Part shown: positions 625 through 56,872 of the stretch, piece after piece | Layout: every line of letters begins with the position of its first letter | How positions within the stretch are numbered: the first letter of the stretch is position 1 | DNA from: Lentisphaeria bacterium UBA1732 | GTDB lineage: Bacteria; Verrucomicrobiota; Lentisphaeria; Victivallales; UBA1829 | Length of the DNA stretch: 64,000 nt | NCBI GenBank assembly: GCA_002315855.1 | Contig: DCIG01000050.1 | Span: forward strand, 24,350 to 88,349 | Reading direction: 5' to 3' | Program-made: the position numbers and the translations under genes | The notes under the pieces: generated by a model | What the model was told of the DNA's origin: nothing | The model's database searches: none | What the model saw: only the letters and a program-made list of their open reading frames with translations

Positions 625-660
625 CTGATTTCAAAAGTCCTGCCGGGAGCTGTGAAATTT
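625..660. repeat. Palindromic intergenic repeat, copy 1 (right arm degenerate)
   Basis: ctgatttcaaaa-gtcctgccggga-gctgtgaaattt. Lies in the leader of the GH27 gene. Confidence 0.7.
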
Positions 661-772
661 TTTTCGGCATTCGCCGGAAGAGCGTTTTCGGCGGCTGCTT
701 TTCCAGAAGCCACCTCAAAAAACTACTCCCGCCAACTGCGCGAAAATCCTTTTTCAATCTTTCCGTCAATTA

Positions 773-788
773 CTTTTGAAATCAGGTC
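773..788. repeat. Palindromic intergenic repeat, isolated right-arm half copy
   Basis: cttttgaaatcaggtc matches the right-arm consensus TTTTGAAATCAG. No clear left arm. Confidence 0.45.
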
Positions 789-798
789 ATGTTTTAGA

Positions 799-826
799 AA
801 AATAGCATAATGTTACTTTTTTTCAA
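799..826 (-). promoter_or_regulatory. Sigma-70-type promoter for the GH27 gene
   Basis: On the minus strand: -35 TTGAAA (complement of 821-826), 16-nt spacer, -10 TATTTT (complement of 799-804). Confidence 0.5.
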
Positions 827-874
827 GAAGCAAGACATAAAAAGTAGTGAAAAAAACGGGTGTTCTTCTCTGAA

Positions 875-912
875 CTGATTTCAAAATTCTGCCGGGAGCT
901 TTCAAGTCAGCT
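875..912. repeat. Palindromic intergenic repeat, copy 2
   Basis: ctgatttcaaaa-ttctgccgggagc-tttcaagtcagct. The right arm overlaps the glgB stop codon (907-909). Confidence 0.7.
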
Positions 913-3180
913 TATTCCTTCCATCAAAGGGACGGGTTCAGGCGACGGTTTCGGAGCAAGGATGATGCAGGAAAGCCACGGGAGACGCACCGTAAGATGA
1001 TAAGGAAGATTGTGGAAAATGCCGTCCTCGGCAACCATGCGCTGACCATTCAGGAGACCGGTCCCATCGTATTCTTCACGGTCGGTGTTGAAAAGTTCGA
1101 CCCATTCTCCGGGGAGAGGAACGCCAAGAGTGAAATTATCACGGACCACCGGAGTCAAGTTCAAAATCACAACGAGGGGATGCCTGTGCGCTTTGTCCCA
1201 TCGAATGAAAGAAAAGACACTCTGCCGGAAATTGCCGCAGTCAATCCACTGGAAGCCATTCATGGTGAAATCATCTTCCCAAAGAGAAGGCTGAGAACGA
1301 TAGAAGAGATTGAGTTCGCGGACCATGCGGTGCAGGGCATCGTGAGCAGGATATTTGAGGAGAAGCCAGTCAATGCTCTGGTTGTTGCAGTTCCATTCAA
1401 TCACCTGAGCGAGCTCGCCGCCCATGAAGATGAGTTTTTTACCGGGATGAGCCGCCATATAGGCATACATGGCACGGAGGTTGGCAAACTTCTGCCTGTA
1501 ATCACCGGACATGCGGTCAAACAGGGATTTTTTGCAGTGAACGACCTCATCATGGCTGAACGGGAGGATAAAGTTTTCCGTGAACGCGTAGCAAATCGAA
1601 AACGAAAGTCTGTTATGATGATAACTGCGGAAAATGGGGTCGAGCGCGAAATAATCAAGGGTGTCGTGCATCCAGCCCATATTCCACTTGAACGTGAATC
1701 CAAGACCGGAGAGGTAAATCGGACGGGAAACGCCGGGCCATGAGGTGGATTCCTCCGCAATCATGACCGTGCCGGGGAACATGGAATGAGTCAGTTCATT
1801 GAGGCGGCGAATAAACGAAACGGCTTCCAGATTTTCACAGCCGCCGTACTGATTCGGAATCCATTCGCCCTCCTTGCGGGAGTAATTGAGGTAAAGCATG
1901 GAGGCGACAGCATCCACGCGCAAACCATCCACATGATAGCGATCCATCCAGAAAAGAGCACTGCCAATGAGGAAATCACGGACTTCGTTGCGTCCGAAGT
2001 TAAAGATGTAAGTACCCCAGTCCTTCTGTTCACCCTTGCGCGGGTCGGCGTGTTCATAGAGGGCAGTGCCGTCGAAACGTCCGAGTGAGAACAAATCACG
2101 GGGAAAATGAGCAGGGACCCAGTCAAGAATCACCCCGATATTCTTCTCGTGCATGTGATTCATGAACCATGCGAAATCATCGGGAGAGCCGTAGCGTGCA
2201 GTGGGGGCATAATATCCTGTTACCTGATAGCCCCAGGACTGATCGAGGGGATGTTCCATCACGGGGAGCAGTTCCACGTGCGTATAGCCCATATCCAGCA
2301 CATAATCCGCAAGTGCGACGGCAAGTTCGCGGTAGTTGTTGAAAGTCTCCTTGATTTCGGGGAGCTTCAAACCGGGACCGCCCCAGCTGCCGAGGTGAAC
2401 TTCATAAATATTCATCGGGCTTTCAATGGGATTGCAGGCGGAACGAGTCTGCATCCATTCGTCATCGGACCATTTGAAATGACCGCCATTGGAAACGATA
2501 CCGGCATTATTCGGGCGCAGCTCAGTGCGCTGTGCATAGGGATCGAGTTTGAGGACGATTTCACCCGTACAGGTGTGCACCTCGTATTTATAGACTTCGC
2601 CCTCTTTCACATCGGGGATGAAAAGTTCCCAAATGCCGGATGAACCAAGCAGACGCATTGCATGACGGCGACCATCCCAATTATTGAAGTTGCCAACGAC
2701 TGAAACGCCAAGAGCATTCGGAGCCCAAACCGTAAAGAGAGTACCGCTGACATCGCCGTATTTTTTCAGATGAGCCCCCATGACATCATAAACACGAAGA
2801 TGTTCGCCGCGGCTGAAGAGAGAAATATCATCTTCGGAAATACCGGGGAGGAAGCAATAGGGGTCGGCTGTAATGAAGGTGGAATGTTCAAATGTCTTGC
2901 GAATTTTATAGGCAAAGAATTTTCGTTTTGAGGGGAAGAAACAACCGAAGAGACCATTTTCATGAATGCGTGAAGCCGGGAAGAGATTGGCACCGACAAT
3001 GATCTCAATTTTCAGAGCATCGGGGTCGTAAACATAAACGGCAATGCCATTTCCAACCCTGTGCATTCCAAGGACGGCATGAGGATTGCGAGAAGAACCG
3101 CTGAATAAATCCTTCAAAGCAGAAGAATCGGGCACCGGAACAGAAATACGGATGTTCGAAGCACTCATAAAAGAAGTCAT
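907..3180 (-). CDS. glgB: 1,4-alpha-glucan branching enzyme (GH13)
   Basis: 757-aa ORF with branching-enzyme/GH13 motifs DWVPAHF, DGLRVDAVASMLY and IAEESTSWPG. Its start overlaps the cdsA stop by 4 nt. Confidence 0.93.
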   Translation of the reverse strand: MTSFMSASNIRISVPVPDSSALKDLFSGSSRNPHAVLGMHRVGNGIAVYVYDPDALKIEIIVGANLFPASRIHENGLFGCFFPSKRKFFAYKIRKTFEHSTFITADPYCFLPGISEDDISLFSRGEHLRVYDVMGAHLKKYGDVSGTLFTVWAPNALGVSVVGNFNNWDGRRHAMRLLGSSGIWELFIPDVKEGEVYKYEVHTCTGEIVLKLDPYAQRTELRPNNAGIVSNGGHFKWSDDEWMQTRSACNPIESPMNIYEVHLGSWGGPGLKLPEIKETFNNYRELAVALADYVLDMGYTHVELLPVMEHPLDQSWGYQVTGYYAPTARYGSPDDFAWFMNHMHEKNIGVILDWVPAHFPRDLFSLGRFDGTALYEHADPRKGEQKDWGTYIFNFGRNEVRDFLIGSALFWMDRYHVDGLRVDAVASMLYLNYSRKEGEWIPNQYGGCENLEAVSFIRRLNELTHSMFPGTVMIAEESTSWPGVSRPIYLSGLGFTFKWNMGWMHDTLDYFALDPIFRSYHHNRLSFSICYAFTENFILPFSHDEVVHCKKSLFDRMSGDYRQKFANLRAMYAYMAAHPGKKLIFMGGELAQVIEWNCNNQSIDWLLLKYPAHDALHRMVRELNLFYRSQPSLWEDDFTMNGFQWIDCGNFRQSVFSFIRWDKAHRHPLVVILNLTPVVRDNFTLGVPLPGEWVELFNTDREEYDGTGLLNGQRMVAEDGIFHNLPYHLTVRLPWLSCIILAPKPSPEPVPLMEGIS

Positions 3181-4151
3181 CCCCCAATGATGAAAATATA
3201 AATCGGACGCTGAATCATGGCAAATAGAACGGCATTGACCATCAAACTGTCCGTAAGGTCATAAAGACCGCCGATACCGGGCAGAAAATGACCGGAATCC
3301 TTCACTTTGCAGGTGCGCTTGATGCTGGATTCGGCAAGGTCGCCAATGGCACCGCCGAAGTAAAGGACAGCACCAATAGCGGAAGCAGCAAGGTACAGCG
3401 ACCATGTTTTCGGGAAAATATCATTGTACTGGGTGCTTCTGCACAGATAAATCATCAGATTACTGCCAATGATGCAGGTCAGGAGACCGCCGACAGCACC
3501 TTCCCATGATTTACCGGGACTGATTTTGGGAATGAGCTTATGATTGCCGCCTTTGTTCCGCAGAAAATAAGCAGAGAGACTGCCGACCACGTAGGCGCCA
3601 ATATCTCCGAGCTTGGTAATCAGAACAAAATAAAGGAAGAAGAAATTATATGAGGTAACATTCACATAATGAGCTTCTTCCCGGCCAAAGAAATAAATTT
3701 CCACGATGCACTGGATGGCCATATTCACCAAAAACATCGGGACCAGCATATTCACGATACGGCGGAATTTATTTTCCTTGTTGCAGGACTGGAGAATCGC
3801 CACCCAAATAATAAACGCAATCAGCAGAGGAAGCGAAAAACTGACCGCAGAGGAAATCTGAATCACAATGGAACGGAAATCCTGAACGATGTAGTGAAGA
3901 CGTCCGAAATGCTGCTGGACAATCGTTGCCGCCGTAGTCAGAAAACATGCTGTGGCGGAAAGATGAGCGGAAACATCTTTGCTGGCTTTTCCATCCAGCA
4001 TTTTGGCAAGCTCATAGGCTGTACCGTAAGTGAGCAGGCAGCACAAAATTCCAAACACCCAAATACTCAAGCGCATGGGCAGGAAAACTGAGCCGGAAAG
4101 CAAAGCAAGAAGAACTACCGTACTGAATGTGCGTTTCCAAAAAGTATTCAT
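3177..4151 (-). CDS. cdsA: Phosphatidate cytidylyltransferase family membrane protein
   Basis: 324-aa polytopic ORF. The C-terminal SSIKRTCKVKDSGHFLPGIGGLYDLTD aligns to the CDS signature SxxKRxxxxKDxGxxxPxHGGxxDRxD, but with His->Ile and Arg->Leu. Sits directly downstream of uppS, the usual uppS-cdsA arrangement. Confidence 0.8.
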   Translation of the reverse strand: MNTFWKRTFSTVVLLALLSGSVFLPMRLSIWVFGILCCLLTYGTAYELAKMLDGKASKDVSAHLSATACFLTTAATIVQQHFGRLHYIVQDFRSIVIQISSAVSFSLPLLIAFIIWVAILQSCNKENKFRRIVNMLVPMFLVNMAIQCIVEIYFFGREEAHYVNVTSYNFFFLYFVLITKLGDIGAYVVGSLSAYFLRNKGGNHKLIPKISPGKSWEGAVGGLLTCIIGSNLMIYLCRSTQYNDIFPKTWSLYLAASAIGAVLYFGGAIGDLAESSIKRTCKVKDSGHFLPGIGGLYDLTDSLMVNAVLFAMIQRPIYIFIIGG

Positions 4152-4154
4152 TTC

Positions 4155-4868
4155 TCAACGACCTCCGAATCTGCGGTTTCGATGATAGAAAGTCTGTACA
4201 GCCTTGTCAAATTCCGAAATATCAAAGTCAGGCCAATAGACCGGCGTAAAATAAAATTCACTGTAAGAGAGCTGCCACAAAAGAAAATTGCTGATACGCT
4301 GTTCGCCGCTGGTGCGAATCATCAGGTCGGGATTCGGCACATCCGGCAAAAACAGGTTGGAAGCAATGGTCTGCTCCGTAATATCATCAGGAGAAAGCGT
4401 ACCGTTTTGAACCTGTGCAGCGATTTTGCGGGCAGCAAATGTGATTTCCTGACGGGAACCATAATTCAGAGCAAGAATAAAGGTGCGCCGGAAGTCTGAA
4501 GAAGTTTCCTCCATGACTTTCTGTAAACGCACCTGACAGGAGGCCGGAAGACCATTTATGTCGCCCATCATCCGCAAACGGATTTTTTCCTGCTTAAGAA
4601 GAGCGAGATTGGAGTCGAGGAAGTCGCAAAGGATGGACATGAGAGCATCGACTTCCTCCTTGGAACGCTTCCAATTCTCCGTACTGAACGCATACAAGGT
4701 AACGAACTTGATTTCAGGATATTTCTGCATCCATTTAACGAAGTTGACGACATTTTTCGCGCCTGCCAAATGACCTTCGACACGTTCCAGATTGTGTTCT
4801 TTCGCCCATCTGCCGTTGCCGTCCAGAATAATGGCGACATGAGTCAGGGGAGAATCATTTTCCGCCAT
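4155..4868 (-). CDS. uppS: Undecaprenyl diphosphate synthase (cis-prenyltransferase)
   Basis: MAENDSPLTHVAIILDGNGRWAKEH and later RTSGEQRISNFLLWQ motifs. I prefer ATG 4868 over the track start 4955, because the upstream extension overlaps the gmhA-like CDS. Confidence 0.9.
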   Translation of the reverse strand: MAENDSPLTHVAIILDGNGRWAKEHNLERVEGHLAGAKNVVNFVKWMQKYPEIKFVTLYAFSTENWKRSKEEVDALMSILCDFLDSNLALLKQEKIRLRMMGDINGLPASCQVRLQKVMEETSSDFRRTFILALNYGSRQEITFAARKIAAQVQNGTLSPDDITEQTIASNLFLPDVPNPDLMIRTSGEQRISNFLLWQLSYSEFYFTPVYWPDFDISEFDKAVQTFYHRNRRFGGR

Positions 4869-5508
4869 AAAATTCCTCCTCCAGCATAATCGCCAGGGTG
4901 TGGTAAAGCGGGAGATGATATTCCTGAACGATATACGCTTCCTTGCCGGGGACATCCATAATCACATCGGCATACGGACGGCAAATGCCCTCTTCGTGGT
5001 CGCCCGTCATAAGAATCGTGGTAATGCCCATGGCACGGGCAACTTTGAAAGCATTGCAGATACTGACGGATTTTCCCGATGTGGTAAAGCCCATAACGGC
5101 ATCGCCTTCACACCCGTAAATGAGGAGCTGCTGAGCGTAAATCATCATCGGGTCAACATCATTCATGTACGCAGTCGCCAAGGCAGACTGACCACTGAGA
5201 GTCATTGCACGAAAACCGCACTGCAAAAAATCGGCAAGATGATCGTCAGGATACAAGGAATCAAGTTTCCGCCGAAGCTCGTCCGGGAGAGGACGTCTCT
5301 TCAGAAAACTCTTGCCAAGTTCCCCGACCAAATGATCCGCATCGGAATAACTTCCGCCATTTCCACAACAAAATAAAGTTTTGCCATTGAAAAATACGTT
5401 TTTCAGAGTAATGTATAGAAAGGATATTTTTTCAGACGCCGGTTCCAATGCGGGACAACGTCTGAACAAATCATCCAGATGCTTTTTCACATTGCTGTTG
5501 ATAACCAT
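4855..5508 (-). CDS. gmhA: SIS-domain phosphoheptose isomerase-like protein
   Basis: 217 aa with CCGNGGSYSDADHLVGEL, GFTTSGKS and IVQEYHLPLYH, which resemble the GmhA motifs GNGGSxxDAxH, STSGNS and QExH. Confidence 0.7.
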   Translation of the reverse strand: MVINSNVKKHLDDLFRRCPALEPASEKISFLYITLKNVFFNGKTLFCCGNGGSYSDADHLVGELGKSFLKRRPLPDELRRKLDSLYPDDHLADFLQCGFRAMTLSGQSALATAYMNDVDPMMIYAQQLLIYGCEGDAVMGFTTSGKSVSICNAFKVARAMGITTILMTGDHEEGICRPYADVIMDVPGKEAYIVQEYHLPLYHTLAIMLEEEFYGGK

Positions 5509-5798
5509 GTTAACCTTCTGTTGATGAATCGTTGAAAAATTAATACTATGTTAATAGAACACCATTTATCGACAAAGTCAAACATCTTTATCAACAAGTT
5601 TGAAAAAAAGTGAAAATGAGGTTAAAAAAGAGTGTTGAAATGGTGGTTATCAACATTATCAACATCTCTACTGATAATACAAATTTAAATTTGAAATAAT
5701 TATCAGAATCAGCCGAACAACAAAGTGTCAATAACATAACGGGCATCTCTATTGCAGTAGAGGTATCCCCAAATCAACGGTTATCCCGGAGGAACACC
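5496..5798. other. Candidate oriC: DnaA-box cluster plus AT-rich tract upstream of dnaN
   Basis: Five 9-mers match TTATCCACA at 8/9: TGTTGATAA (reverse) 5496-5504, TTATCGACA 5566-5574, TTATCAACA 5588-5596, and tandem TTATCAACA 5647-5655 and 5656-5664. An A-rich tract lies at 5600-5640. Flanking genes diverge (minus to the left, plus to the right). Confidence 0.45.
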
Positions 5799-6905
5799 AT
5801 GAAAATCAAAATCAAGAAAGACGTACTGTTCAAAGCAATGCAGCGAGTAGGAAGCACCGTAAGCAGCCGAAATACACTGCCGCTGCTCGCCAATGTGCTG
5901 ATTGAGGCGGCAGAAGGAAGCATCAAGCTCACCGGAACAGATTTGGAAATCCGAATTGAGACGACAGTGGCGGCTGAAGTGATAGAAGAAGGAAAAACAA
6001 CTCTGCCCGCGAAGAAGCTGATTACGCTGATTTCAAAGTGCCGCGGAGAAGAAGTGCTGATTGAAAGCAATGAAAATTATCACTCGAAAATCAAATGCGG
6101 AACGACCTCCGTCATGCTTCTGGGACTTGATCCGTCCGATTATCCTCAGCAAAATGAAATGACCGTGAAACGTTCGTTCAAGCTGAAACAGGCGGATTTG
6201 GCAACGATAATCGACAGAATCATGTATGCAGCGGCGAACAGCCAGGATTCAAGAACATATTTGCAGGGACTGCTTTTTTCCATCAAGGACGGCAAGTTCA
6301 CGGCAGTGGCAACCGACGGAAAACGTCTGGCTCTGTGCGAAAAGCTCTTCGACTACGAAGAAGGCACGGAAGAAACAGACGGCGACATTATCGTTACGCT
6401 GAAATCCGCCACAGAACTGAAGAGATTGATGGAGAAAGAAGGCGAAGTGGAAGTGCAGATTTCCGAAAATCAGGTATTGTTCCGCCTCAGCGACACGATT
6501 CTGATTTCCAAGCTGATTGACGGGAATTACCCGAATTACCGGCCGATTATTCCGTCTTCCTACAAGCAGGTGATTTCCGTTCCGAGAGACAGCGTGCAAT
6601 ACGCAATTGACCTGCTGATGAGCACATTCGGCGAATCGACTTCACCGAGCATACGTTTGACGTTCGGCGAAAACAATCTGCTGTTCGAGGTCAACAGCAA
6701 CATCGGCGAAGGCAAAGAAGAAGTGCCGATTCAGTACGAAGGCGAACCGATTTCCGTTCAGTTCAATACATCTTTCCTGCTGGAACCGTTCCGTCATCTG
6801 GACAACGACAATGTATTCATCAAGCTGAATGATGTGATGAGCCCGGTTACCGTGGAAAGCGGCGACGGATTCCTGTACATCATCATGCCGATGAGAAACA
6901 AGTAA
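5799..6905 (+). CDS. dnaN: DNA polymerase III beta subunit (sliding clamp)
   Basis: 368 aa starting MKIKIKKDVLFKAMQRV..., with three-domain clamp-like length and sequence. GGAGG RBS at 5788-5792. recF lies downstream. Confidence 0.93.
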   Translation: MKIKIKKDVLFKAMQRVGSTVSSRNTLPLLANVLIEAAEGSIKLTGTDLEIRIETTVAAEVIEEGKTTLPAKKLITLISKCRGEEVLIESNENYHSKIKCGTTSVMLLGLDPSDYPQQNEMTVKRSFKLKQADLATIIDRIMYAAANSQDSRTYLQGLLFSIKDGKFTAVATDGKRLALCEKLFDYEEGTEETDGDIIVTLKSATELKRLMEKEGEVEVQISENQVLFRLSDTILISKLIDGNYPNYRPIIPSSYKQVISVPRDSVQYAIDLLMSTFGESTSPSIRLTFGENNLLFEVNSNIGEGKEEVPIQYEGEPISVQFNTSFLLEPFRHLDNDNVFIKLNDVMSPVTVESGDGFLYIIMPMRNK

Positions 6906-7001
6906 GAGCAAATTCAATGAAAAAGGGGTCTTGCGGCGATTTTCTGAAGATTGTTTTCCGAGCGTAAACGAGGAAAAGAAGTCGCCGCAGAAGAATCCCG
7001 G

Positions 7002-7043
7002 AGCTGATTTTAAAAAATCTGTCTGCGATTTTTGAAATCAGCT
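7002..7043. repeat. Palindromic intergenic repeat, copy 3
   Basis: agctgattttaaaaa-atctgtctgcga-tttttgaaatcagct; arms complementary at 14/15. Followed by tcatgaa. Confidence 0.8.
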
Positions 7044-7072
7044 TCATGAAAAATCTTCCCGTCAATTGTGCA

Positions 7073-7114
7073 AGCTCATTTCAAAATGTCCGGCAGGACT
7101 TTTTGAAATCGGTT
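7073..7114. repeat. Palindromic intergenic repeat, copy 4 (core in reverse orientation)
   Basis: agctcatttcaaaa-tgtccggcaggac-tttttgaaatcggtt. Followed by tcatgaa. Confidence 0.8.
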
Positions 7115-7260
7115 TCATGAATGTAAGCGGGCAGGATTTTCGGGGGACAGAATGTGCTTTTTTTCATTCGTTCAGGCTGTGCAGAAACAGGTGAAACGAA
7201 AGGTAAAAGAGTGATTCCATCCCCCTGAATTCAGCTCAAACCATTTTTTTGCCATACAGT

Positions 7261-8334
7261 ATGATTTCGGCTCTGGAACTTCACAATTTTCGATTGTTTG
7301 AATCACTTTCGCTCAACTTCAATGCGCGAAAAGTTTTTTTATGCGGTTCAAACGGACAAGGAAAGACGACGATTCTGGAGTCGCTGTTCTATTTGTCGAA
7401 TTTAAGGTCGTTCCGGACATCGCGCGCCGCAGAAATGATCACGATTCATGAGGAATATGCTTCACTGGCGGCAGATGTGTCATTCACCGGATGGAAAAAG
7501 CGGATTCAGGCAGGCTTGGGGAATAACTGCAGGCAGCTGAATATCGACGGAAAGCATGTAACGCGGGCAAGCGATTTTGCAGGAACGTATCACACCGTAA
7601 CTTTTCTGCCGAATGACCCGGAAATCATAACGGGACGTTCGCAGGTAAGACGGCGGATGCTGGACATGTTTATTTCGATGATTGACCGGGATTATTTCAC
7701 AGCACTGCAAATGTACAGCACGGGAGTACGAAGCCGGAACTGTCTGCTGCGAGACCCGAAAAGCGATGAGGCACTGATCCGGTCGTATCATCCGCTGATT
7801 GCAGAGTACGGCGCAAAAATCAACGAAAGCAGAAAAATCCATTTGCGGATATTGTCGGATTATATGCACGATGTAATCGTAACGCTGAAGCCGGAATTGT
7901 CCGATTTGACCATGAAAATGCGGACGAGTCGCGAATTGTGCGAAAAAGAAGCATACTGCAAGCGGCTGGATTCATCCATCGAACATGACCGGGGAATGGG
8001 ATATACTTCATTCGGTCCGCATTTGGATGATTTCGATTTTGTGGCGGATGAAAAATCCCTGAAACTGTACGGGTCGCGCGGACAATGCAGAACAGTGTCC
8101 TTCGCACTGAAAGCGGCAGAATTTGACATCACGCAAAATCAGCGTTCCTCACGGGACAATACAATCGTAATCGTAGATGACGCCACAGGAGACCTGGATA
8201 AGAAAACGCAGGACGCATTCTACAGCCGAATCTCAACGGCAAAACAGGTATTCTGCACATTTACGGAACTGCCCGATCATCCGATGTCTGCGGATGCTCA
8301 GGTAATCCAGATTACCGCAGGACGCGCAGTTTAG
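7261..8334 (+). CDS. recF: DNA replication and repair protein RecF
   Basis: MISALELHNFRLF..., Walker A GSNGQGKTTILESL, and position after dnaN. The track start at 7249 is a TTG; ATG 7261 gives the usual RecF N-terminus. Confidence 0.9.
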   Translation: MISALELHNFRLFESLSLNFNARKVFLCGSNGQGKTTILESLFYLSNLRSFRTSRAAEMITIHEEYASLAADVSFTGWKKRIQAGLGNNCRQLNIDGKHVTRASDFAGTYHTVTFLPNDPEIITGRSQVRRRMLDMFISMIDRDYFTALQMYSTGVRSRNCLLRDPKSDEALIRSYHPLIAEYGAKINESRKIHLRILSDYMHDVIVTLKPELSDLTMKMRTSRELCEKEAYCKRLDSSIEHDRGMGYTSFGPHLDDFDFVADEKSLKLYGSRGQCRTVSFALKAAEFDITQNQRSSRDNTIVIVDDATGDLDKKTQDAFYSRISTAKQVFCTFTELPDHPMSADAQVIQITAGRAV

Positions 8335-8407
8335 CCATAAGAGCTGAGCTCACAAGCGATTCAGAGCCGATTTCAAAACAAGCTGATAAGAAAGGAAACG
8401 AATATCA

Positions 8408-9688
8408 ATGTACAATTCGATTATATGCCGGTACAATGAGATTGCCACAAAGGGCAACAACCGCTCCATGTTTGAAAATATGCTGATGCGCAACATGCGG
8501 ACGCTGATCAAGCCGGATATTCCTGAGATACTGCTCCGGAAAATGCGCGGACGCATTTACATTTACAAAGACGGGTTTACGGTTTTCACGGAAGAAGAGA
8601 AAGAAATGATTACGGAACGCCTGAAACGTGTTTTCGGGCTGGATTCATTTTCGTTCTGCATGGAGGGACCGCGAGAATTTGACGCTTTGATGCAAATGAT
8701 TCGTGATGAAGTGGTTCCGCTGTTTGAAGAACAGTTTGCAAAGGGCAATTCCGTGGTGAAATTCAGAACACGCGCCAGACGGTCCGACCATACATTTCCA
8801 ATGTGTTCCCGCGATATTGAAATCGAAGTGGCAACGATGCTGGAAAAAATCGTGGGAGAAGATCATCTGAAAGTGGATTTGACCGATCCCGATATTTCCA
8901 TCGGCGTGGAAATCCGCGAAAACAATTCCTCGGTCTTTCTGGAAACAGAAAAGGCGGCGGGCGGTCTTCCGGTGGGTTCCAATGCAGCTGTACTGGGATT
9001 GCTTTCCGGCGGAATCGATTCACCTGTGGCATGTGTCATGGCAATGCAGCGCGGATGCAGGATGGATTATCTGACCTTCCACAGTTATCCGTATACGCCA
9101 ATGGAATCGGTGGAAAAGGTCCTGCGGATTTCGCAAATTGTCAACCGGTGGCAGCCGCACGGGACATTGTTTGCGTGCAATCTTTCCGAAATCCAGAAGC
9201 TGATTCGCGACAACTGTGACCCGCGATGCCGGACTGTACTGTACCGCAGAATGATGATGCGAATTGCATCCATGCTCTGCCGGAAACGCAAACTCAGTGC
9301 CATTGTAACCGGTGAAGCCGTGGGACAAGTGGCAAGCCAGACCGTGGAAAATATGGGCGTCATCAATCAGACAGTGCCGGATTTGATTCTGCGTCCGCTG
9401 TGCGGCATGGACAAGAATGAAACCATCATCCGCGCAAGAAACATCGGGACTTTTGAAACATCCATTGAGCCAATGATTGACAGCTGCACCGTCTTCGCTC
9501 CGGACTCTCCGGTGCTCCATGCAAAACTGCCGCAGATCGAATATGAAGAAAGCAGAATACCGGATTTGCAGGCGGCACTGCAAGCGGCATACGATGACAT
9601 TGACATCGTTACAAATGACGAAAACGGTATGAAGCTGACGAAACTTTCCGGAAAGAAAGATTATCATGAAAATAATGATAATCAATGA
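8408..9688 (+). CDS. thiI: tRNA 4-thiouridine synthase ThiI (THUMP + PP-loop; no rhodanese domain)
   Basis: 426 aa starting RYNEIATKGNNR, with PP-loop LLSGGIDSPVA. AAAGGA RBS. Confidence 0.9.
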   Translation: MYNSIICRYNEIATKGNNRSMFENMLMRNMRTLIKPDIPEILLRKMRGRIYIYKDGFTVFTEEEKEMITERLKRVFGLDSFSFCMEGPREFDALMQMIRDEVVPLFEEQFAKGNSVVKFRTRARRSDHTFPMCSRDIEIEVATMLEKIVGEDHLKVDLTDPDISIGVEIRENNSSVFLETEKAAGGLPVGSNAAVLGLLSGGIDSPVACVMAMQRGCRMDYLTFHSYPYTPMESVEKVLRISQIVNRWQPHGTLFACNLSEIQKLIRDNCDPRCRTVLYRRMMMRIASMLCRKRKLSAIVTGEAVGQVASQTVENMGVINQTVPDLILRPLCGMDKNETIIRARNIGTFETSIEPMIDSCTVFAPDSPVLHAKLPQIEYEESRIPDLQAALQAAYDDIDIVTNDENGMKLTKLSGKKDYHENNDNQ

Positions 9689-9699
9689 TTTGTTATAAA

Positions 9700-9785
9700 T
9701 GACGGAACATTCGTCATTGACGGAAATATGACGGAATATCCGTTATTGACGGATAAAATGTCCGTTACAGATGACGTAATGACGG
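9700..9785. repeat. Array of six TGACGG/TGACGT motifs, several paired with CCGT as short palindromes
   Basis: TGACGG at 9700, 9718, 9729, 9747 and 9780; TGACGT at 9772. Palindromic units: cgtca-t-tgacg (9712-9722), tgacgga-atat-ccgtta (9729-9745), tgacgga-taaaatg-tccgtta (9747-9767). Confidence 0.6.
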
Positions 9786-9840
9786 TTATCCCGTAAATGA
9801 AGAAAAACCCAACAACATTAACCAATAAAGGAATGAAAAC

Positions 9841-11226: not shown

Positions 11227-11228
11227 AA

Positions 11229-12735: not shown

Positions 12736-12785
12736 ATGGCGGAGCAGTTTTTCAAGACGGAAATTTTCAGAACTGCTTTCCGATG

Positions 12786-13073
12786 TCATTGACGGAGAGA
12801 TTGGGCGTCAGCACATTCTTTCTGCCAATTTTCCCCGGCTTCATTGTCCTGCGGATGGACAAAACGATGGTATAGTTCCATGAGAGTCTGCAATGCTGTT
12901 TCCGGTGTAAAATCGGGAATAAAGAGGGCTTTGTCATATAATTCCGATGTCACTGACGGTTTTTTTTGAGCTTGTTCTGTTAATTTACTTTTATTTGTAC
13001 AAAAGTCAAGTTTTGGCGGGCTGTTATCCAAAGCAAATCTGTATGAAAATGCGTTTGCGGACTCATTAATCAT
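12786..13073 (-). CDS. Hypothetical 95-aa ORF straddling the AT-rich island boundary (possibly chimeric or non-coding)
   Basis: AAAGGA RBS before ATG 13073. The first ~40 codons are AT-rich and the rest has host-like composition. No recognisable motifs. Confidence 0.2.
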   Translation of the reverse strand: MINESANAFSYRFALDNSPPKLDFCTNKSKLTEQAQKKPSVTSELYDKALFIPDFTPETALQTLMELYHRFVHPQDNEAGENWQKECADAQSLRQ

Positions 13074-13146: not shown

Positions 13147-13860
13147 TTAATGATTTACATAGGCTTTATCAAAAATTTCATTTATAAATGCAATGCTCTT
13201 TCGATTCAAGGTTTTTTGACATAATTTATTTAATACAACTGGAAGAATAATGAATAACTCTTCTAGTGCACCTTCTTTTCCACTTGCAAGATCATAAAAA
13301 CGTTTGCCATCAATCATTCTGATTTTTGAATCCTGTTTACAATGTTCTCCTGTTGATGGATCTGATGGGAAAAACATGTTATTAACACCTTCTGGTGATT
13401 TCGGAACAATCATAACATAATAGGCAGTATAACCTCTGAAAAAACTTGTCTTGCTGTTGACCATTTCAGATAGTTTTCTATACAAAGTAACAAGCCCATC
13501 TGCATTAAGAGTATTGTGTTTATTTTTAATATCAGCGATTATTTTTTGTTTTTGGTTAAGAAGGTCAACTTGATTTGAAGTTTGTAGGTCAAACCATCCA
13601 TTTATATTTCCTAAAATTTGTTGATGAAATAGTCCAATAGCATTAGATAAAGCCTTATCAAGTTGCCGATTGATTTCGTTATTCTTCCATTCTTCCGCAG
13701 ATAAATCAAACAATGCCATCGAAAATGCAACTCCAAACGGATCGCAAACATTTCGGCTAAACTTTTTTTCAGCATTAATTTGTCCTTGCCGAACGGAAAG
13801 GATTAAATTATTACATGCTTCCGTAAGTTTTTCATCTGAAATCCATGATAAGTATGACAT
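13147..13860 (-). CDS. Type II restriction endonuclease, Eco47II-like (family guess)
   Basis: 237-aa AT-rich ORF directly downstream of a C5 methyltransferase. Motifs DPFGVAF, NAIGLFHQQILG and ADIKNKHNT match my memory of the RE_Eco47II family, and its length is close to the ~239 aa I recall for R.Eco47II. Not verifiable here. Confidence 0.6.
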   Translation of the reverse strand: MSYLSWISDEKLTEACNNLILSVRQGQINAEKKFSRNVCDPFGVAFSMALFDLSAEEWKNNEINRQLDKALSNAIGLFHQQILGNINGWFDLQTSNQVDLLNQKQKIIADIKNKHNTLNADGLVTLYRKLSEMVNSKTSFFRGYTAYYVMIVPKSPEGVNNMFFPSDPSTGEHCKQDSKIRMIDGKRFYDLASGKEGALEELFIILPVVLNKLCQKTLNRKSIAFINEIFDKAYVNH

Positions 13861-13924
13861 TTTTTCTCCTTCGGGTTAGAAATTCGAAAGATAATATAAT
13901 CTTGTTTTTTGTAGTTTCAAGGTA

Positions 13925-15166
13925 TTATTCAATAATATTTAACATTCTAACCAAAGCACGCCCCATTGCATAAGCTAAATTTACAGGGACTGCATTCCCA
14001 ATTTGTTTATAAATGCTACTAATTGACCCAATAAATTCCCAATCATCGGGAAATGTTTGTATTCGAGCATATTCCCGTGTTGTAAGAGGTCTTGTCTCGT
14101 CAGGATGGCATCGTTCTGTTTGTTTTTGAGCAGGAGCACATGTTAGCGTTAGACTTGGCTCATCCCATGAAAGGCGACGTGCCATCCCTGTTTTTCCACC
14201 CTCAAGATAAAAGCTGCCTTTCATATATTCTTTTTGTAATTCGATAGGTAAGTCTCTCCAATATCCTCCCGGAGGAACAAATGAAAGAATTTCTTCCTTT
14301 CTTTTTGGATATTTTTGTCCTGGAGAAGGAGGGCAATCAGAATCATAAAGTATTCCCTTTTTTAATGCATCTTTAAGGGTAAGAATTCTTTCATATGGAG
14401 ATGGCCAAGAAAATTTTAGTTTATCTGCAAGATCATTTCTTATTCCAACCAAAAAGAGGCGTTCCCTTTTCTGAGGAACCATGTAAAAAATGGCTTTTAG
14501 AAATTGAGGTTCAACAAGAGTATAGCCAATTTCTTTAATAACATCTTTAATTGTTTGAATTGTTTTTCCGTTATTGTGATCAAGCAGTCCTCTAACATTT
14601 TCACCTAAAAATATTTTTGGCTGTACCTCTTTTACAACTCTGGCAAATTGATAAAAAAGTGTCCCACGTGTATCTTCAAAACCAAGTTTTTTCCCAGCAT
14701 ATGAGAATGCCTGACAAGGAAATCCTCCAGAAACCATATCAATTTGTCCCTTATATTTTTCAAAAGAAATCAAAGAAACATCCCCCTGAACAACGTTCCA
14801 GTTTGGACGATTTTTTTTAAGTGTCCAACATGCATCAGGAACGAGCTCATTAAGCATAATATGACAAAATCCTGCTTTTTCCAATCCTAATGCTAATCCA
14901 CCTGCTCCGGCAAAAAGTTCTATGTCAGTATATTTTCTGTGAGGCTTGGTTTTTAATTCATTATTCCAATTTGTGTTAAACATGACTTTTGCTTCATCAA
15001 ATAAAAGAAGCTGTTCTTTTTCATATACGCGATAATTGTTTTTGGGATGTCGAACTGGCTTCAGTTTTCCATTGTTATCCCACCGTCTTAAAGTTTCCTT
15101 TGAGACAGAAAGCATATCTGCAACTTCTGAAATAGAAAAAAAAGATTGGGTTAGAGTTGTGCCCAT
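13925..15166 (-). CDS. DNA (cytosine-5) methyltransferase with N-terminal MerR/excisionase-type HTH
   Basis: C5-MTase motifs I ELFAGAGGLALG, IV GGFPCQAFS, VI LGENVRGL, VIII QKRERLFLVG and X GNAVPV. The N-terminal FSISEVADMLSVSKETLRRWDNNGKLKP is a MerR-like HTH. Confidence 0.92.
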   Translation of the reverse strand: MGTTLTQSFFSISEVADMLSVSKETLRRWDNNGKLKPVRHPKNNYRVYEKEQLLLFDEAKVMFNTNWNNELKTKPHRKYTDIELFAGAGGLALGLEKAGFCHIMLNELVPDACWTLKKNRPNWNVVQGDVSLISFEKYKGQIDMVSGGFPCQAFSYAGKKLGFEDTRGTLFYQFARVVKEVQPKIFLGENVRGLLDHNNGKTIQTIKDVIKEIGYTLVEPQFLKAIFYMVPQKRERLFLVGIRNDLADKLKFSWPSPYERILTLKDALKKGILYDSDCPPSPGQKYPKRKEEILSFVPPGGYWRDLPIELQKEYMKGSFYLEGGKTGMARRLSWDEPSLTLTCAPAQKQTERCHPDETRPLTTREYARIQTFPDDWEFIGSISSIYKQIGNAVPVNLAYAMGRALVRMLNIIE

Positions 15167-21710: not shown

Positions 21711-21727
21711 TTTTTACTCCTGACTAA

Positions 21728-21767: not shown

Positions 21768-21801
21768 TCTCTGATGAAAATTTCGTAAAGAGATTTTAAA
21801 T

Positions 21802-51571: not shown

Positions 51572-51683
51572 AAACATCCTGTATTTTCCCTCCGCCAATG
51601 TAATTTTTAGACAGTCGATGAATCGACTTCTTATGTTTGCTGGAGCCATTATCCGTTCCAATCAAATGTAAGTGTTTTTTTTA

Positions 51684-51763
51684 AAAACCCCCGATTTGTA
51701 AGCGTTTTGGCACAAAAATAAATGTTTTGGCACAAAACCCCGATTTGTAAGTGTTTTGGCACA
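51684..51763. repeat. Tandem direct repeat (~50-bp unit, 1.6 copies) with an internal GTTTTGGCACA sub-repeat
   Basis: aaaacccccgatttgtaagcgttttggcacaaaaataaatgttttggcac is followed by aaaaccccgatttgtaagtgttttggcaca. A further tgtaagtgtttt lies at 51667-51678. Confidence 0.7.
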
Positions 51764-54175: not shown

Positions 54176-55557
54176 AGAACCACCCCGTTCCCTTTCAGCA
54201 GTGGTTCCGCCGGCACATGGATTACGTTCTCCGGCAAATCCGTCCGTCTTGGTTTTTCGGACACCAGAATCGGCACGACCTGCACATCGGGCTTTTCCAG
54301 TTCCGCAATCAGCGCCGCCACGGCGGTGTCATACCGTTTCACCACCAGAAACACCATCCCTGCGTCTTCCACGTCGCCCGCAATCGCAGGAAGCGCATTC
54401 TTGCTGAATGGATCGAGGATTGCAGGTTCCGCCAGTGCCAGCGTATCGAGCACGTCCTGTTCGGAAAGCGTGTTTTCTCCCTCATTGCATTGGATGGCCC
54501 GGCTTCCCGACACAAAGGCTCTTATGCGCACTCCGCGCCGGGTCAGCTGTTCTGCGATGGAGGCCGCCATTGACACTGCCGCCTCGAAAACAGGTTCCGG
54601 CTGATAACGCAATGTTACATTGTCCATGAGCGAGATTTTGAATTTCAGCAGCGAGGTTACAGGCTGATAAATGTCCAGAATGATTGCCGCCGCAGAGGTC
54701 TCCTCTTCCTGAAAATCCTTGACGATGGGCTGTCTCAGACGGGCTGTCGCACGCCAGTGGATTTTCCTCAGCGGATCGCCCGGCCGGTATTGTCTGCATC
54801 CGAAAAAATCCATGCTTTCCCCCGATTTCGGCGAAGACAGCGAATCCGAACGCTGCGGACAGGAAAGCCCCGGCAGTGAAAACAGCCCCGTGATTTGCGA
54901 GACCGATGGATGCACGATGAGATTCTGCTTTTCCGAAAACAGCACAGAGTGCTTGATGAGGTTGAATGGGAAAATGGACTCCGCGATTCCCTGCGGAATT
55001 GACACAATGCCGCGCCGGAATGCAATCAGTTTCAATTCTGCGTGGCCCGTCTGTTTTCCCCCGAATGAGTTCATCGCGGAGAGCTCGGCGTACCGCAAAT
55101 CCGGCAGTGTGATATTCGGGTCGAACCGGACATCGTAGGCGGGCAGCTTCCGCAGATTGGTAACGTCATATACGATTTTGAATGGAATTCCGCAGCGCAC
55201 GCGGGATGGCAGTTTGCGCGTGATGTTCAGCTTCGGTTTGAAGACCCATCCCGCGGCGAAATCCGCCGCAAGCAGTGCCGTCAGAATCAGAAACAGCGTG
55301 ATTGCAGGACTTCGCATCGACAGAGATGAAAAGAAAAATGCGAACACGTAAATAATCAGAAACAGACGCGCGTGCCAGCTGAATATCCTGTCATACCACG
55401 CCATCCCCCAGAAAAACAGTTTCAGGCTGGGCGACCGGTAATGCCGGAAAATAAATCCCAGTCCATGGGATTCACGAATCCAGCCCGGCCCTTCCAGAAA
55501 TTTCTCCCACTTTCTGCGGATGAAGTGTCGCATGTGCATTATTCTCTTGTCCGGCAC
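54172..55557 (-). CDS. DUF58-domain protein
   Basis: 461 aa. FGCRQYRPGDPLRKIHWRATAR matches the conserved DUF58 motif. Sits between moxR and the transglutaminase gene and overlaps the latter's start by 4 nt. Confidence 0.85.
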   Translation of the reverse strand: MPDKRIMHMRHFIRRKWEKFLEGPGWIRESHGLGFIFRHYRSPSLKLFFWGMAWYDRIFSWHARLFLIIYVFAFFFSSLSMRSPAITLFLILTALLAADFAAGWVFKPKLNITRKLPSRVRCGIPFKIVYDVTNLRKLPAYDVRFDPNITLPDLRYAELSAMNSFGGKQTGHAELKLIAFRRGIVSIPQGIAESIFPFNLIKHSVLFSEKQNLIVHPSVSQITGLFSLPGLSCPQRSDSLSSPKSGESMDFFGCRQYRPGDPLRKIHWRATARLRQPIVKDFQEEETSAAAIILDIYQPVTSLLKFKISLMDNVTLRYQPEPVFEAAVSMAASIAEQLTRRGVRIRAFVSGSRAIQCNEGENTLSEQDVLDTLALAEPAILDPFSKNALPAIAGDVEDAGMVFLVVKRYDTAVAALIAELEKPDVQVVPILVSEKPRRTDLPENVIHVPAEPLLKGNGVVL

Positions 55558-55569
55558 AAATCATCCCGT

Positions 55570-56514
55570 TCAAACCGGGACGCGGATTTTTTTCCGGATG
55601 GCGTCCAGCAAAGTCGCGGCTGTCTGTCCCGCATGTTTGCTTTCCGAACTCACTTGCAGACGGTGTGCCAGCACAAACGGCATTAAAAACACCACGTCAT
55701 CCGGGATTACGTAGTCGCGTTTCTGCAAAAATGCCCGTGCCTGTGCGCAGTGTGCCAGGTCCAGCAGGGCGCGCGGGGATGCTCCCAGCACGAACCCCGA
55801 TTCTGCTTCGCGTGTCGCGCTTACGATGGCGCGCATGTATTCCTGCACCGAGCGTTCCACGCTGACGGTCCGCACTTCTTTCTGCAAATCCTGCAATTCC
55901 GCGCACGAGATGACCGGCTTGAGTTTTTCCAGCGGGTCGGAATCCCACCGCTCGTTCAGCATGGCAAGTTCCTGCTCTTCATTGGGATAGCCGATGGAAA
56001 ACCGCACCATGAACCGGTCCAGCTGTGCTTCCGGCAGCGGAAATGTCCCGAAATATTCAATCGGGTTTTCTGTGGCAATCACCAGAAATGGATGCGGCAG
56101 ATCGTAGTGGCCGCCCTCAATCGAAATCTGCGATTCATTCATCGCCTCCAGCAGTGCCGACTGCGTCCGCGGCGATGCCCGGTTGATTTCGTCTGCAAGC
56201 AGAATATTGGCGAAAATCGGTCCCTTGTAGAAGATGAACTCCCCTGTTTTCTGACTGAATACCGATGACCCCAGAATATCCGACGGCATCATGTCGGATG
56301 TGAACTGAATCCGTTTGAAATCGGCTTCCAGGGAGCGTGCCAGTGCTTTGGCCAGGGTCGTTTTCCCCACCCCAGGTACATCGTCCAGCAGTACATGTCC
56401 TGACGCAAGTACCGCGTTCAGAAGCAGTTCTACCACCTGTTTCCCCGCATGGATGACGGAATGCAGATTGGCTCGGATTAACTCTGTTTTTGCAAATGAT
56501 TCAGTTTGATTCAT
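55570..56514 (-). CDS. moxR: MoxR-family AAA+ ATPase
   Basis: 314 aa. Walker A DDVPGVGKTTLAKALA, Walker B ILLADEINRASP, and a size typical of MoxR. Confidence 0.9.
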   Translation of the reverse strand: MNQTESFAKTELIRANLHSVIHAGKQVVELLLNAVLASGHVLLDDVPGVGKTTLAKALARSLEADFKRIQFTSDMMPSDILGSSVFSQKTGEFIFYKGPIFANILLADEINRASPRTQSALLEAMNESQISIEGGHYDLPHPFLVIATENPIEYFGTFPLPEAQLDRFMVRFSIGYPNEEQELAMLNERWDSDPLEKLKPVISCAELQDLQKEVRTVSVERSVQEYMRAIVSATREAESGFVLGASPRALLDLAHCAQARAFLQKRDYVIPDDVVFLMPFVLAHRLQVSSESKHAGQTAATLLDAIRKKIRVPV

Positions 56515-56735
56515 GGATCTTTCCGGGGTTGCTCGTTTGGATTCCTGGTGACCGGATGCTTGGATTTCCCTGCCGGAAACGCTCCTGAAGGAAACGTCGC
56601 TTCTTGCTGGTCTCTCGCGTCCTGAAGGGGTTCTCTGTGAATGGAGATACCCTAAACAATAACTTCTTTTTTCTGAAATTGCAACTTATTCTGTGAAAAA
56701 TAGAGAAAAAAAGAACTCTTCCTGCAAAAAAACGG

Positions 56736-56764
56736 TTGATTTTTTCGCAGAAACGGTCTATCTT
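56736..56764 (+). promoter_or_regulatory. Candidate promoter for the lipoprotein gene cluster
   Basis: -35 TTGATT 56736-56741, 17 nt, -10 TATCTT 56759-56764. Confidence 0.45.
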
Positions 56765-56833
56765 ATTTATATACGTTTCAACTTTTGATATCGTTTCCCA
56801 TTGGGGGCTTTTTGTCCCTTGATAAAACTGCGG

Positions 56834-56872
56834 AGCTGATTTCAAAAGGCATTGAAACTTCGGATTTTAGCT
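56834..56872. repeat. Palindromic intergenic repeat, copy 11 (degenerate right arm), in the leader of the lipoprotein cluster
   Basis: agctgatttcaaaa-ggcattgaaacttcgg-attttagct. Confidence 0.6.

Follow-up and report, generated by a model that had tools for sequence, protein, structure and literature searches.

Short, closely similar palindromes recur between the genes of the 64-kb stretch of DNA analyzed here (the window), which raises the question of whether they are scattered copies of one element or hairpins that the host maintains by selection. They form a lineage-specific, intergenic family in an uncultured gut/rumen Lentisphaerota bacterium (Verrucomicrobiota; UBA1732). The arm CTGATTTCAAAA has 10 exact matches in the window. 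When one mismatch was allowed, 17 sites were found, compared with 0.90 ± 0.93 (maximum 5) in 100 dinucleotide-preserving shuffles of the window; with up to two mismatches there were 32 sites against 13.3 ± 4.2 expected. Intergenic DNA (7,782 bp, 12.2% of the window) contains 16 of the 17 arms with at most one mismatch, which bears out the intergenic bias proposed in the original prediction. The single coding arm, at 6027 within dnaN, carries one mismatch and is at chance frequency, and the coding 88% of the window contains no exact arm.

The window holds nine full palindromes of 33–48 bp plus approximately five half copies or relics, a density of ~0.2 full and partial copies per kb. The consensus is AGCTGATTTCAAAA-GTCCTGCCGGGA-TTTTGAAATCAGCT: two inverted arms of 14–18 nt, (TCATGA)AGCTGATTTCAAAAGT(CC), enclose a GC-rich core that is short and asymmetric (GTCC-TGCC-GGGA). 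GC content is 25% in the arm CTGATTTCAAAA and 31–54% in whole copies. The 5' flanks carry (T/G)GA(G/A) ahead of CTGATTTC, and TCATGAA, correctly said before to follow several copies, lies immediately 3' of three (7044, 7115, and 38164), on one side only. The gap between arms is 6–20 nt and, in one pair (621–638/772–789), 133 nt; in four of the nine copies the spacer differs in length as well as in sequence. Between the arms, GTCCTGCCGGGA and its reverse complement were both found, as originally noted, so that both orientations are present. That this asymmetric core is shared in both orientations suggests that the palindromes are copies of one template and not independently evolved hairpins. 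The copies and their partial relatives are given below, with bit scores and E-values from a covariance model of the family run on the window.

621–660, plus strand: copy with exact arm CTGATTTCAAAA and exact core GTCCTGCCGGGA, right arm degenerate (GCTGTGAAATTT); 48.1 bits; a run of T lies on its 3' side
772–789, no strand assigned: solo arm ACTTTTGAAATCAGGTCA, the distal partner of 621–638, preceded by the linker motif CCGTCAAT
873–912, plus strand: full copy, 52.1 bits; the last codon and stop of glgB (AGC TGA, minus strand, 907–912) lie inside the right arm
7002–7050, plus strand: full copy with divergent core, followed by TCATGAA; first of two tandem copies in the dnaN-recF spacer
7073–7121, minus strand: full copy with reversed core (GTCCGGCAGGAC on the plus strand), followed by TCATGAA; second of the tandem pair; 55 bits
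7126–7140, no strand assigned: fragment AGCGGGCAGGATTTT, like the core plus the start of an arm, by resemblance only and with no model match
8366–8390, plus strand: solo arm CCGATTTCAAAA with one mismatch, in the 73-bp recF-thiI spacer; 12.9 bits, E = 2.2
12770–12803, minus strand: possible decayed relic, weak, with 79% identity over 34 nt to the unit at 755–788 (CCGTCAAT linker plus arm)
21726–21767, minus strand: full copy, 59.6 bits, folding z −4.9
21910–21950, plus strand: degenerate full copy, 19 nt 3' of the stop of an rpoD-like gene; 43.3 bits
23444–23491, minus strand: full copy whose core is long (20 nt) and divergent; 44.8 bits
30244–30284, minus strand: half copy, one exact arm plus GTCCGG, just 5' of the −35 of a promoter-like site of a MATE transporter gene; 11.4 bits
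32879–32916, plus strand: full copy with exact core and truncated right arm, 69 nt 3' of the rpsD stop codon; 49.8 bits
38131–38171, no strand assigned: short copy, its core 6 nt long (GTGCAC), with TCATGAA directly 3' of it; it takes up most of the 56 bp that separate two co-directional genes; 41.6 bits
56834–56872, plus strand: half copy with exact left arm and the rest diverged, abutting the TGA stop of the gene at 56872–57654 (minus strand); ~10.5 bits

The original prediction had located 11 copies, a half copy, and two fragments in this DNA, and each was recovered in its place. Nine of the 11 are full palindromes; the other two (30249–30284 and 56834–56872) have one good arm only, with model E = 4.6 to 8.3. 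The overlap with the glgB stop was also confirmed, at 907–912 in the arm of the copy at 873–912. The proposed search pattern, CTGATTTCAAAA-N-TTTTGAAATCAG, matches no copy exactly, and the family does not make up most of the otherwise unexplained intergenic sequence: its summed length of ~500 bp is only ~6.5% of the intergenic DNA in the window. The ORF at 167–628 on the plus strand, which ends at the first copy, was rejected as spurious, the real gene there being a minus-strand GH27 alpha-galactosidase.

Intact and broken copies form a decay series that runs from the nine full copies through half copies and solo arms (at 772, 8366, 30271, and 56836) to fragments. One longer arrangement is present, in which the left arm at 621–638 pairs inverted with 772–789 at 17 of 18 positions, 133 bp apart; the pair spans 169 bp, and its interior is unique within the window. 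Copies cluster at 621–912, 7002–7140, and 21726–21950. The cores are inverted in the 21726(−)/21910(+) cluster and direct in the 621(+)/873(+) cluster, and the divergent core of 7002 leaves the orientation of the 7002/7073 pair ambiguous. Relative to transcription, the cores are approximately four sense to five antisense, with no strand bias.

Copies occupy no fixed place relative to promoters, stop codons, or terminators. Those at 21726 and 23444 follow promoters, that at 30244 precedes a −35, those at 873 and 56834 overlap or abut stops, that at 32879 lies after a 3' end, and that at 38131 sits in an operon spacer. The copy at 21726–21767 has a sigma70-like −10 box 35 nt upstream and the start codon of an acyl-CoA synthetase gene 16 nt further on, making it part of a candidate 5' UTR, and the copy at 23444–23491 lies ~20 nt 3' of the −10 of a sigma70-like promoter serving the rpoD-like gene. 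The canonical carB terminator (23633–23659) is separate from the latter copy.

Comparison with other genomes indicates that the copies are stable between close strains and confined to this lineage. Eight copies are at identical sites in two other samples of the same species (~99% identical), and for these eight no presence/absence polymorphism was found over 11.3 kb in those two strains, which are only ~1% diverged. Against the second strain, there were 4 SNPs in 226 bp of repeats and 53 in 7660 bp of coding DNA (Fisher p = 0.08 for repeats against the rest of that contig), so the repeats are no more conserved between strains than their surroundings. A related genus, with RecF 63% identical, has the same gene order, glgB-cdsA-uppS-SIS-dnaN-recF-thiI, and no copies there; its spacers are shorter (dnaN-recF, 130 bp versus 343 bp; recF-thiI, 17 bp versus 73 bp). 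No copy was found in the carB neighborhood of the closest GTDB genomes, and ~22 kb from each of the closest, high-GC GTDB relatives, RUG555 and RUG14783, contained neither a copy nor an analogous palindrome family.

Pattern scans did not find the family in other species among 185,579 GTDB reference genomes. A 24-mer had no GTDB matches, a 16-mer had at least 115, single among those listed, at chance level and in unrelated taxa, and the perfect two-arm pattern matched 13 loci, all of them singletons and again from unrelated taxa. No convincing second inverted arm that might mark a parent insertion sequence (IS) was present near the 16-mer matches. A 21-base pattern had no matches in JGI metagenomes, one match among viral contigs was ascribed to chance, and a BLAST search with the consensus found no plasmid or phage match with an E-value under 0.3. 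A looser two-arm pattern matched at least 120 metagenome loci, which were rejected as relatives because the shared arm is what the search had selected for. They included several loci that shared a different repeat (ACTTCTCATGCTGATTTCAAAAAACTAAATTTTTTTGAAATTGG...) on low-GC, eukaryotic-looking contigs, where any ORF of ≥90 aa was lacking within 1.5 kb. Two metagenome contigs of 65–70% GC with similar palindromes had no Pfam-recognizable genes and were also set aside.

At its gathering threshold, Rfam returned three tRNAs only for the whole window, and thus none of the matches to a described repeat or ncRNA family that had been named as counting against the proposal. At E ≤ 10, positions 500–8500 gave unrelated families, with a best E of 1.8. 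parS, CRISPR-repeat, attC, and riboswitch readings were rejected because of the spacing and context of the copies and because Rfam did not support them (a CRISPR-DR35 match had E = 2.1). A literature search for the arm sequences retrieved unrelated primers only and no named family. The earlier view that the family has no known name therefore agrees with Rfam, plasmids, phages, the literature, and GTDB genomes alike.

Could the palindromes be RNA hairpins that the host selects as mRNA stabilizers, RNase processing sites, or translation/transcription attenuators, with selection on RNA structure maintaining their spread? E. coli REPs near stop codons affect expression of the upstream gene, and some have been shown to act at the RNA level. 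Here, some copies are necessarily transcribed (the candidate 5' UTRs at 21726 and 23444 and the operon spacer at 38131), and those at 873, 21910, 38131, and 56834 lie within 0–19 nt of stop codons. Six of the 11 copies folded clearly better than shuffled sequence (z −2.4 to −5.6), the strongest hairpin being 7002–7050 (RNA, −20.3 kcal/mol, z −5.6), in which arms 7002–7016 and 7029–7043 match inverted at 93%. The claim that each transcribed copy would form a hairpin thus holds for these six but not for the other five (625, 875, 21916, 30249, and 32881), which folded no better than shuffled sequence; 30249 gave no hairpin at all. The hairpins are also stable as DNA. In the nine full copies (33–48 nt), 82% of stem positions are paired, but covariation, measured on a trimmed alignment with a user-specified structure, was no better than in shuffles, and nine stem pairs vary on one side only, changes that break pairs. 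Together, the one-sided pairs and shuffle-level covariation fit decay rather than selection for structure. The asymmetric core shows no strand bias with respect to transcription, copies are no more conserved than their flanks between strains, and the orthologous spacers of the related genus do without them. Selection for RNA hairpins is therefore an unlikely explanation. Convergent intrinsic terminators, perhaps bidirectional and built from an A-tract, a GTCC..GGAC stem, and a T-tract, are very improbable. AAAA and TTTT flank the core, a run of T follows the copy at 621–660, and several copies lie just 3' of stop codons, but none of the 33 terminator-like sites in a scan of 20–40 kb is a copy, the inner GC stem is only 3–4 bp, and in two cases a copy separates a gene's start codon from its promoter. 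Canonical GC-rich terminators with T-runs are separate and nearby, for example at 23633–23659 (after carB) and 33182–33206. Moreover, the shared sequence extends well beyond the stem, which indicates common descent and not convergence.

The arm itself might also be the functional unit. Mean pairwise identity is 78% in arms versus 46% in cores (p = 0.007), a comparison biased by the fact that copies were found through their arms; with that bias in mind, better conservation could mean that arms are selected as a recognition sequence. A 12–14-nt arm acting as a site for a DNA-binding protein (nucleoid-associated or regulator) or as a motif like a DNA uptake signal would be consistent with the solo arms, with the spacer that varies in sequence and length in four of nine copies, and with promoters near some copies. 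The window also encodes the competence-associated protein DprA, which says little for competence because DprA is nearly universal. Half-sites 6–20 nt apart, and once 133 nt, are incompatible with a dimeric operator, and copies also occur at 3' ends and over a stop codon instead of being fixed at promoters. Independently selected arm pairs would differ in their cores, but most copies share the same asymmetric one, and the target genes have no common theme. Neisseria uptake sequences (DUS) occur as inverted pairs in terminators downstream of genes; they resemble the present family in having a conserved 12-mer, often as an inverted pair 3' of genes with some loops variable. They differ in that most copies here have a specific core in common and lack the T-tract architecture of a terminator, and no exact arm occurs here in coding DNA, where Pasteurellaceae uptake signals do occur. 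A protein-binding site or uptake signal of this kind is thus quite doubtful. It is likewise improbable, if a little less so, that the 14-nt arm and not the whole palindrome is the selected unit, recognized by a host protein or by a non-RAYT hairpin-binding transposase, a reading suggested by arms that outconserve cores, solo arms, copies that are stable between strains, and a family found in one lineage.

REPs are recognized by a genomic copy number above 100, a rayt (Y1/HUH) gene lying between two copies in inverted arrangement, and BIME/REPIN clusters of alternating orientation. The present family shares with REPs and REPINs short (20–50 nt) imperfect palindromes restricted to extragenic DNA, high local density in both orientations and in clusters of two to three units, singlets and decayed copies alongside intact ones, vertical stability between close strains, and species-specific sequence; as in REPINs, conserved sequences form an inverted pair around a variable spacer. 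REP/BIME/REPIN sequences are mobilized by RAYT (TnpA-REP) in Proteobacteria (Nunvar 2010, PMC2817692; Bertels & Rainey 2011, PMC3116915, PMC3337134), and the RAYT groups tied to abundant REPs have been described mainly from Pseudomonas and enterobacteria (PMC5581495), whereas the host here is a PVC-group Lentisphaerota bacterium. A 5' GT(A/G)G head and a stem rich in GC characterize canonical RAYT-type REPs (PMC2817692; for the stem also PMC3184786). In contrast, none of the present copies has a GTAG or GTGG head, and their stems are longer (14–18 bp) and AT-rich, with GC only in the apical 3–4 bp. A rayt gene is absent from the 64-kb window; as originally reported, Pfam or NCBIfam scans of the ORFs taken as genes found no transposase or Y1/HUH gene there.

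Compared with MITEs such as Correia/NEMIS, RUP, and MITEAba12 (reviewed in PMC3184786 and PMC10969869), the family has terminal inverted repeats of 14–18 bp whose conservation exceeds that of the interior, is non-coding and intergenic, would form a long hairpin if transcribed, and includes one candidate longer member (621–789, 169 bp); a copy can also give a neighboring gene a stop codon or a promoter-like hexamer. Most copies, however, are 33–48 bp and essentially arm-core-arm, as opposed to the usual 50–500 bp. Both flanks of all copies were inspected and no consistent direct repeat was present, so that target-site duplication is missing. Insertion polymorphism was not seen in the two strains ~1% diverged over 11.3 kb, and no parent IS with matching ends was found in the window, plasmids, phages, or GTDB matches.

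Taken together, these data suggest that the family probably consists of non-autonomous palindromic repeats of the same general kind as REP/REPIN sequences and miniature inverted-repeat elements. The REP/BIME- or MITE-like class originally proposed thus remains the best explanation, still without a name, but the defining features of both the canonical RAYT-type REP (head and stem) and the MITE (duplication and size) fail here. The family is previously undescribed and is most likely a selfish repeat of the REP/MITE-like kind, which bacterial genomes commonly contain. An enzyme encoded outside the window would have spread copies into non-coding DNA, either a RAYT- or IS200-type HUH/Y1 enzyme that recognizes hairpins or a DDE transposase to which the arms are terminal inverted repeats. 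Because no insertion polymorphism was seen in two ~99% identical strains, we infer mobility from the distribution of copies only; since their spread, the copies would have been inherited vertically and decayed slowly. As a side effect, copies in transcribed spacers may place AU-rich hairpins in untranslated regions (5' and 3') and in the RNA between cistrons, where they could change the stability of mRNA, the termination of translation (at glgB), or the context of promoters.

Many bacteria contain short dispersed palindromes, but work on them has, to our knowledge, dealt almost exclusively with Proteobacteria and a small number of Firmicutes. The present family is a clear REP-like case from an uncultured Lentisphaerota bacterium, without the GTAG head or GC-rich stem usual in RAYT-associated REPs, which suggests that REP-like repeats of other phyla may rely on different enzymes. 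For annotation, the family accounts for unusual hairpins found in spacers and 5' UTRs as well as for the C-terminal end of glgB, and its palindromes should not be taken for operators, terminators, or sRNAs. The sequence tag AGCTGATTTCAAAAGTCC can be used to recognize, bin, and type the lineage in metagenomes. If the arm were the selected unit after all, this would be the first REPIN-like pairing of repeat and enzyme, or the first uptake/recognition-signal system, to be described from the PVC group, with an AT-rich stem and no GTAG head.

The repeat unit contains inverted copies of an arm-type sequence, AGCTGATTTCAAAAGTCC, and every element listed in the original prediction was found in its place. 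The 12-nt arm CTGATTTCAAAA (reverse complement TTTTGAAATCAG) has 10 exact matches in the window. There are 17 matches with at most one mismatch, compared with 0.90 ± 0.93 (maximum 5) in 100 dinucleotide-preserving shuffles, and 32 with two mismatches, compared with an expected 13.3 ± 4.2. The commonest intergenic 8-mers in the window are all derived from the arm. Intergenic DNA makes up 7,782 bp (12.2%) of the window by a hand-built gene map, and it contains 16 of the 17 arms with at most one mismatch; the remaining arm is a one-mismatch match within dnaN. Altogether, the window contains nine full units and approximately five solo arms or relics, amounting to approximately 500 bp. The repeats had been credited with most of the unexplained intergenic sequence, but their actual share is approximately 6.5% of intergenic DNA.

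Alignment of the copies in the orientation of their cores gave ..GA(G/A)CTGATTTCAAAA-GTCCTGCCGGGA-(N)TTTTGAAATCAGCT(TCATGAA), and the true extent of the arm is AGCTGATTTCAAAAGT(CC). The core GTCCTGCCGGGA, or a close variant, lies between the arms in six copies and occurs elsewhere only at chance level, inside genes. Arm 621–638 pairs at 17 of 18 positions with a solo arm 133 bp away (772–789), and a linker containing CCGTCAAT adjoins arms at 755–788 and 7051–7068, with a decayed form at 12770–12803. The motif ATTGACGG, which is shared with a motif array downstream of thiI, adjoins repeat arms at 763–770 and 7059–7066 and is also present at 12788. A covariance model made from nine copies recovered these nine at 41–60 bits when the window was scanned and revealed no further strong copy; the half copies at 746–787, 8365–8384, 30244–30284, and 56834–56865 were marginal (E approximately 2–8).

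The copies do not share a position with respect to genes. Their contexts are as follows, with promoter and terminator calls being consensus matches only:

Two copies: 3′ of sigma70-like promoters, in the putative 5′ UTRs of acyl-CoA synthetase and rpoD-like genes
One copy: just 5′ of a −35 box (promoter consensus match)
Copy 873–912: ends in AGCTGA (907–912), which forms the TGA stop of glgB together with the Ser codon before it
One copy: abuts another stop codon
One copy: after the rpsD 3′ end
One copy: occupies an operon spacer

The proposed overlap with the glgB stop codon was borne out, with both the TGA and the last Ser codon supplied by the repeat. GlgB is 757 aa long in the window compared with 739 aa in a related genus (scaffold L198). 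ORF 167–628 (+ strand, 153 aa) is spurious; the actual gene in 1–628 lies on the minus strand and encodes a GH27 alpha-galactosidase with a signal peptide; it begins at 568 and continues past the window edge. Copy 621–660 therefore precedes a gene start, by 53 nt, rather than following the end of a gene. Three copies adjoin an unusually divergent sigma-70-family protein (21969–23348); its best non-conspecific homologue is 43% identical, it scores far below RpoD equivalog cut-offs, and its long N-terminal region is unmatched by those models. Relative to local transcription, the core is sense in approximately four copies and antisense in five. None of seven divergent spacers contains a copy, which is not significant at such numbers.

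Each transcribed copy had been expected to form a hairpin, and folding supported this for six of the 11: the copies starting at 7002, 7073, 21726, 23444, 38131, and 56834 fold better than shuffled sequence (z −2.4 to −5.6), whereas those at 621, 873, 21910, 30244, and 32879 do not. DNA hairpins gave a similar pattern. In the alignment with a specified stem, 82% of cells are paired and covariation is not above that of shuffles; in nine stem pairs just one side varies, and in one pair both sides are changed. A decaying palindrome would show this pattern. Mean pairwise identity is 78% in the arms versus 46% in the cores (p = 0.007), a comparison biased by the use of the arms to find the copies.

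Host selection for RNA hairpins is suggested by the positions of copies in transcripts, but about half of the copies do not fold and the family shows neither covariation nor strand bias; we consider this explanation unlikely. The arm could alternatively be a protein-recognition or uptake-like motif, as the existence of solo arms and the arm-versus-core contrast, with its bias from discovery through arms, would suggest. Spacing is variable, however, the core is common to copies, and no exact arm lies in coding DNA, which leaves this a rather improbable reading. In the 20–40 kb part of the window, no copy qualifies as a terminator and canonical GC-rich terminators with T-runs adjoin copies; it is very improbable that the repeats are terminators.

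The nearest GTDB CarB sequences (84% amino acid identity) belong to the rumen MAGs RUG555 and RUG14783, "uncultured Lentisphaerae," and RecF relatives at 40–45% identity are labelled Lentisphaeria. The same species is present in two Logan contigs from other samples, L081 (ERR11637140; approximately 99% identical to the window) and L197 (SRR9184938; 99.27% identity across 8,644 bp, gapless). All eight copies that these contigs jointly span are present at identical positions. The portion of the genome examined was 64 kb, plus 11.3 kb from these two near-identical strains. Against L197, the 226 bp of repeats have 4 mismatches and the 7,660 bp of coding DNA have 53, and the repeats are not specially conserved between strains (p = 0.08 versus the rest of the L197 contig). 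A related genus, represented by the ENA rumen scaffolds L198 and L199 (57% GC; RecF 63% identical), keeps the glgB-cdsA-uppS-SIS-dnaN-recF-thiI gene order. No repeat copy was detected in either scaffold at E ≤ 1, and spacers there measure 130 bp versus 343 bp in the window and 17 bp versus 73 bp.

Other features were observed in these regions. Upstream of dnaN, a 290-bp divergent spacer contains six DnaA-box-like 9-mers at 5496–5665 (TTATCAACA, TGTTGATAA, TTATCGACA), partly laid out as a long AT-rich palindrome; it is a candidate replication origin, though there is no adjacent dnaA gene. Downstream of thiI (9689–9840), TGACGG(A/T) and CCGTCA motifs are densely arrayed; because a comparable array occupies the same position in the related genus (L198, 12340–12470), the region resembles a conserved operator or an iteron-like region. 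The genes at 13147–15166 encode an Eco47II-family restriction endonuclease plus a C5 cytosine methylase whose N terminus has a MerR-type HTH, and they are probably an acquired restriction-modification island; GC content is 0.41 for 12–16 kb versus approximately 0.49 overall. At 51663–51763, in a 387-bp convergent spacer after a Sel1-repeat gene, a unit of approximately 50 bp (..CCCCGATTTGTAAG(C/T)GTTTTGGCACA) is tandemly duplicated with 81% identity and was missed by Tandem Repeats Finder. In L198, a sequence of approximately 85 bp (ACACGCGCAAGGTACAGTAAAAA.TACCTTGTTTTTACTGTA.CTTGAGGTTTTAGTTTGAGCTCAGGATATTTGAG) lies on both sides (2980–3060 and 3772–3860) of a gene adjoining glgB (202 aa, function not assigned); this arrangement may represent another kind of small mobile unit.

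Searches of GTDB species genomes, JGI metagenomes, viral contigs, plasmids, and phages did not find the family, an absence that rests mainly on specific patterns and, for the 16-mer GTDB and second metagenome scans, applies among the matches listed. The matches listed from these collections were isolated, chance-level palindromes in unrelated taxa. No Rfam family matches the repeat, and a literature search for the arm sequence retrieved unrelated primers only. Low-GC metagenome loci (L229, L218, L318, L277, L208, L249, and L301) on contigs that are probably eukaryotic carry another multi-copy repeat, ACTTCTCATGCTGATTTCAAAAAACTAAATTTTTTTGAAATTGGTTAAGGTTTCGCGAAGT; the sites checked lack any ORF of 90 aa or more within 1.5 kb. 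This repeat has the 12-nt arm and preceding CATG in common with the window family, a likeness that we take as coincidence from the search pattern.

The data point to copies of one template, spread in this lineage and now decaying, because an asymmetric core is common to copies in both orientations; the copies are clustered, confined to spacers, and graded from intact to fragmentary; there is no covariation, strand bias, or positional logic; and orthologous spacers in the related genus, whose gene order is the same, lack copies. Copies of the template would have spread into non-coding DNA and would since have been decaying. The mechanism of spread is inferred. The window contains no enzyme gene for it, the copies have no target-site duplication (TSD), and no empty sites were seen in two strains only approximately 1% different. 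In agreement with the original prediction, scanning the ORFs taken as genes against Pfam or NCBIfam identified no transposase, integrase, or Y1/HUH protein.

The proposed REP/BIME- or MITE-like nature stands as a REP/REPIN-MITE kind of element, without the features of a canonical REP or typical MITE. Canonical RAYT-type REPs have a 5′ GT(A/G)G head, a GC-rich palindrome, and a flanking rayt gene (Nunvar et al., PMC2817692); the copies were tested for the head and the GC-rich palindrome, both are missing, and this identity was rejected. Typical MITEs are longer and carry a TSD, whereas the window copies are too short and have none, so this identity was also rejected. The abstract of a bioRxiv preprint (10.1101/2022.05.22.493013) describes slow, vertically inherited dynamics for REPINs, with which the stability of the repeats between strains is compatible. 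Because it is neither a canonical RAYT-type REP nor a typical MITE, the family is assigned more broadly to the short dispersed palindromic repeats, a known class in which this sequence family is new.
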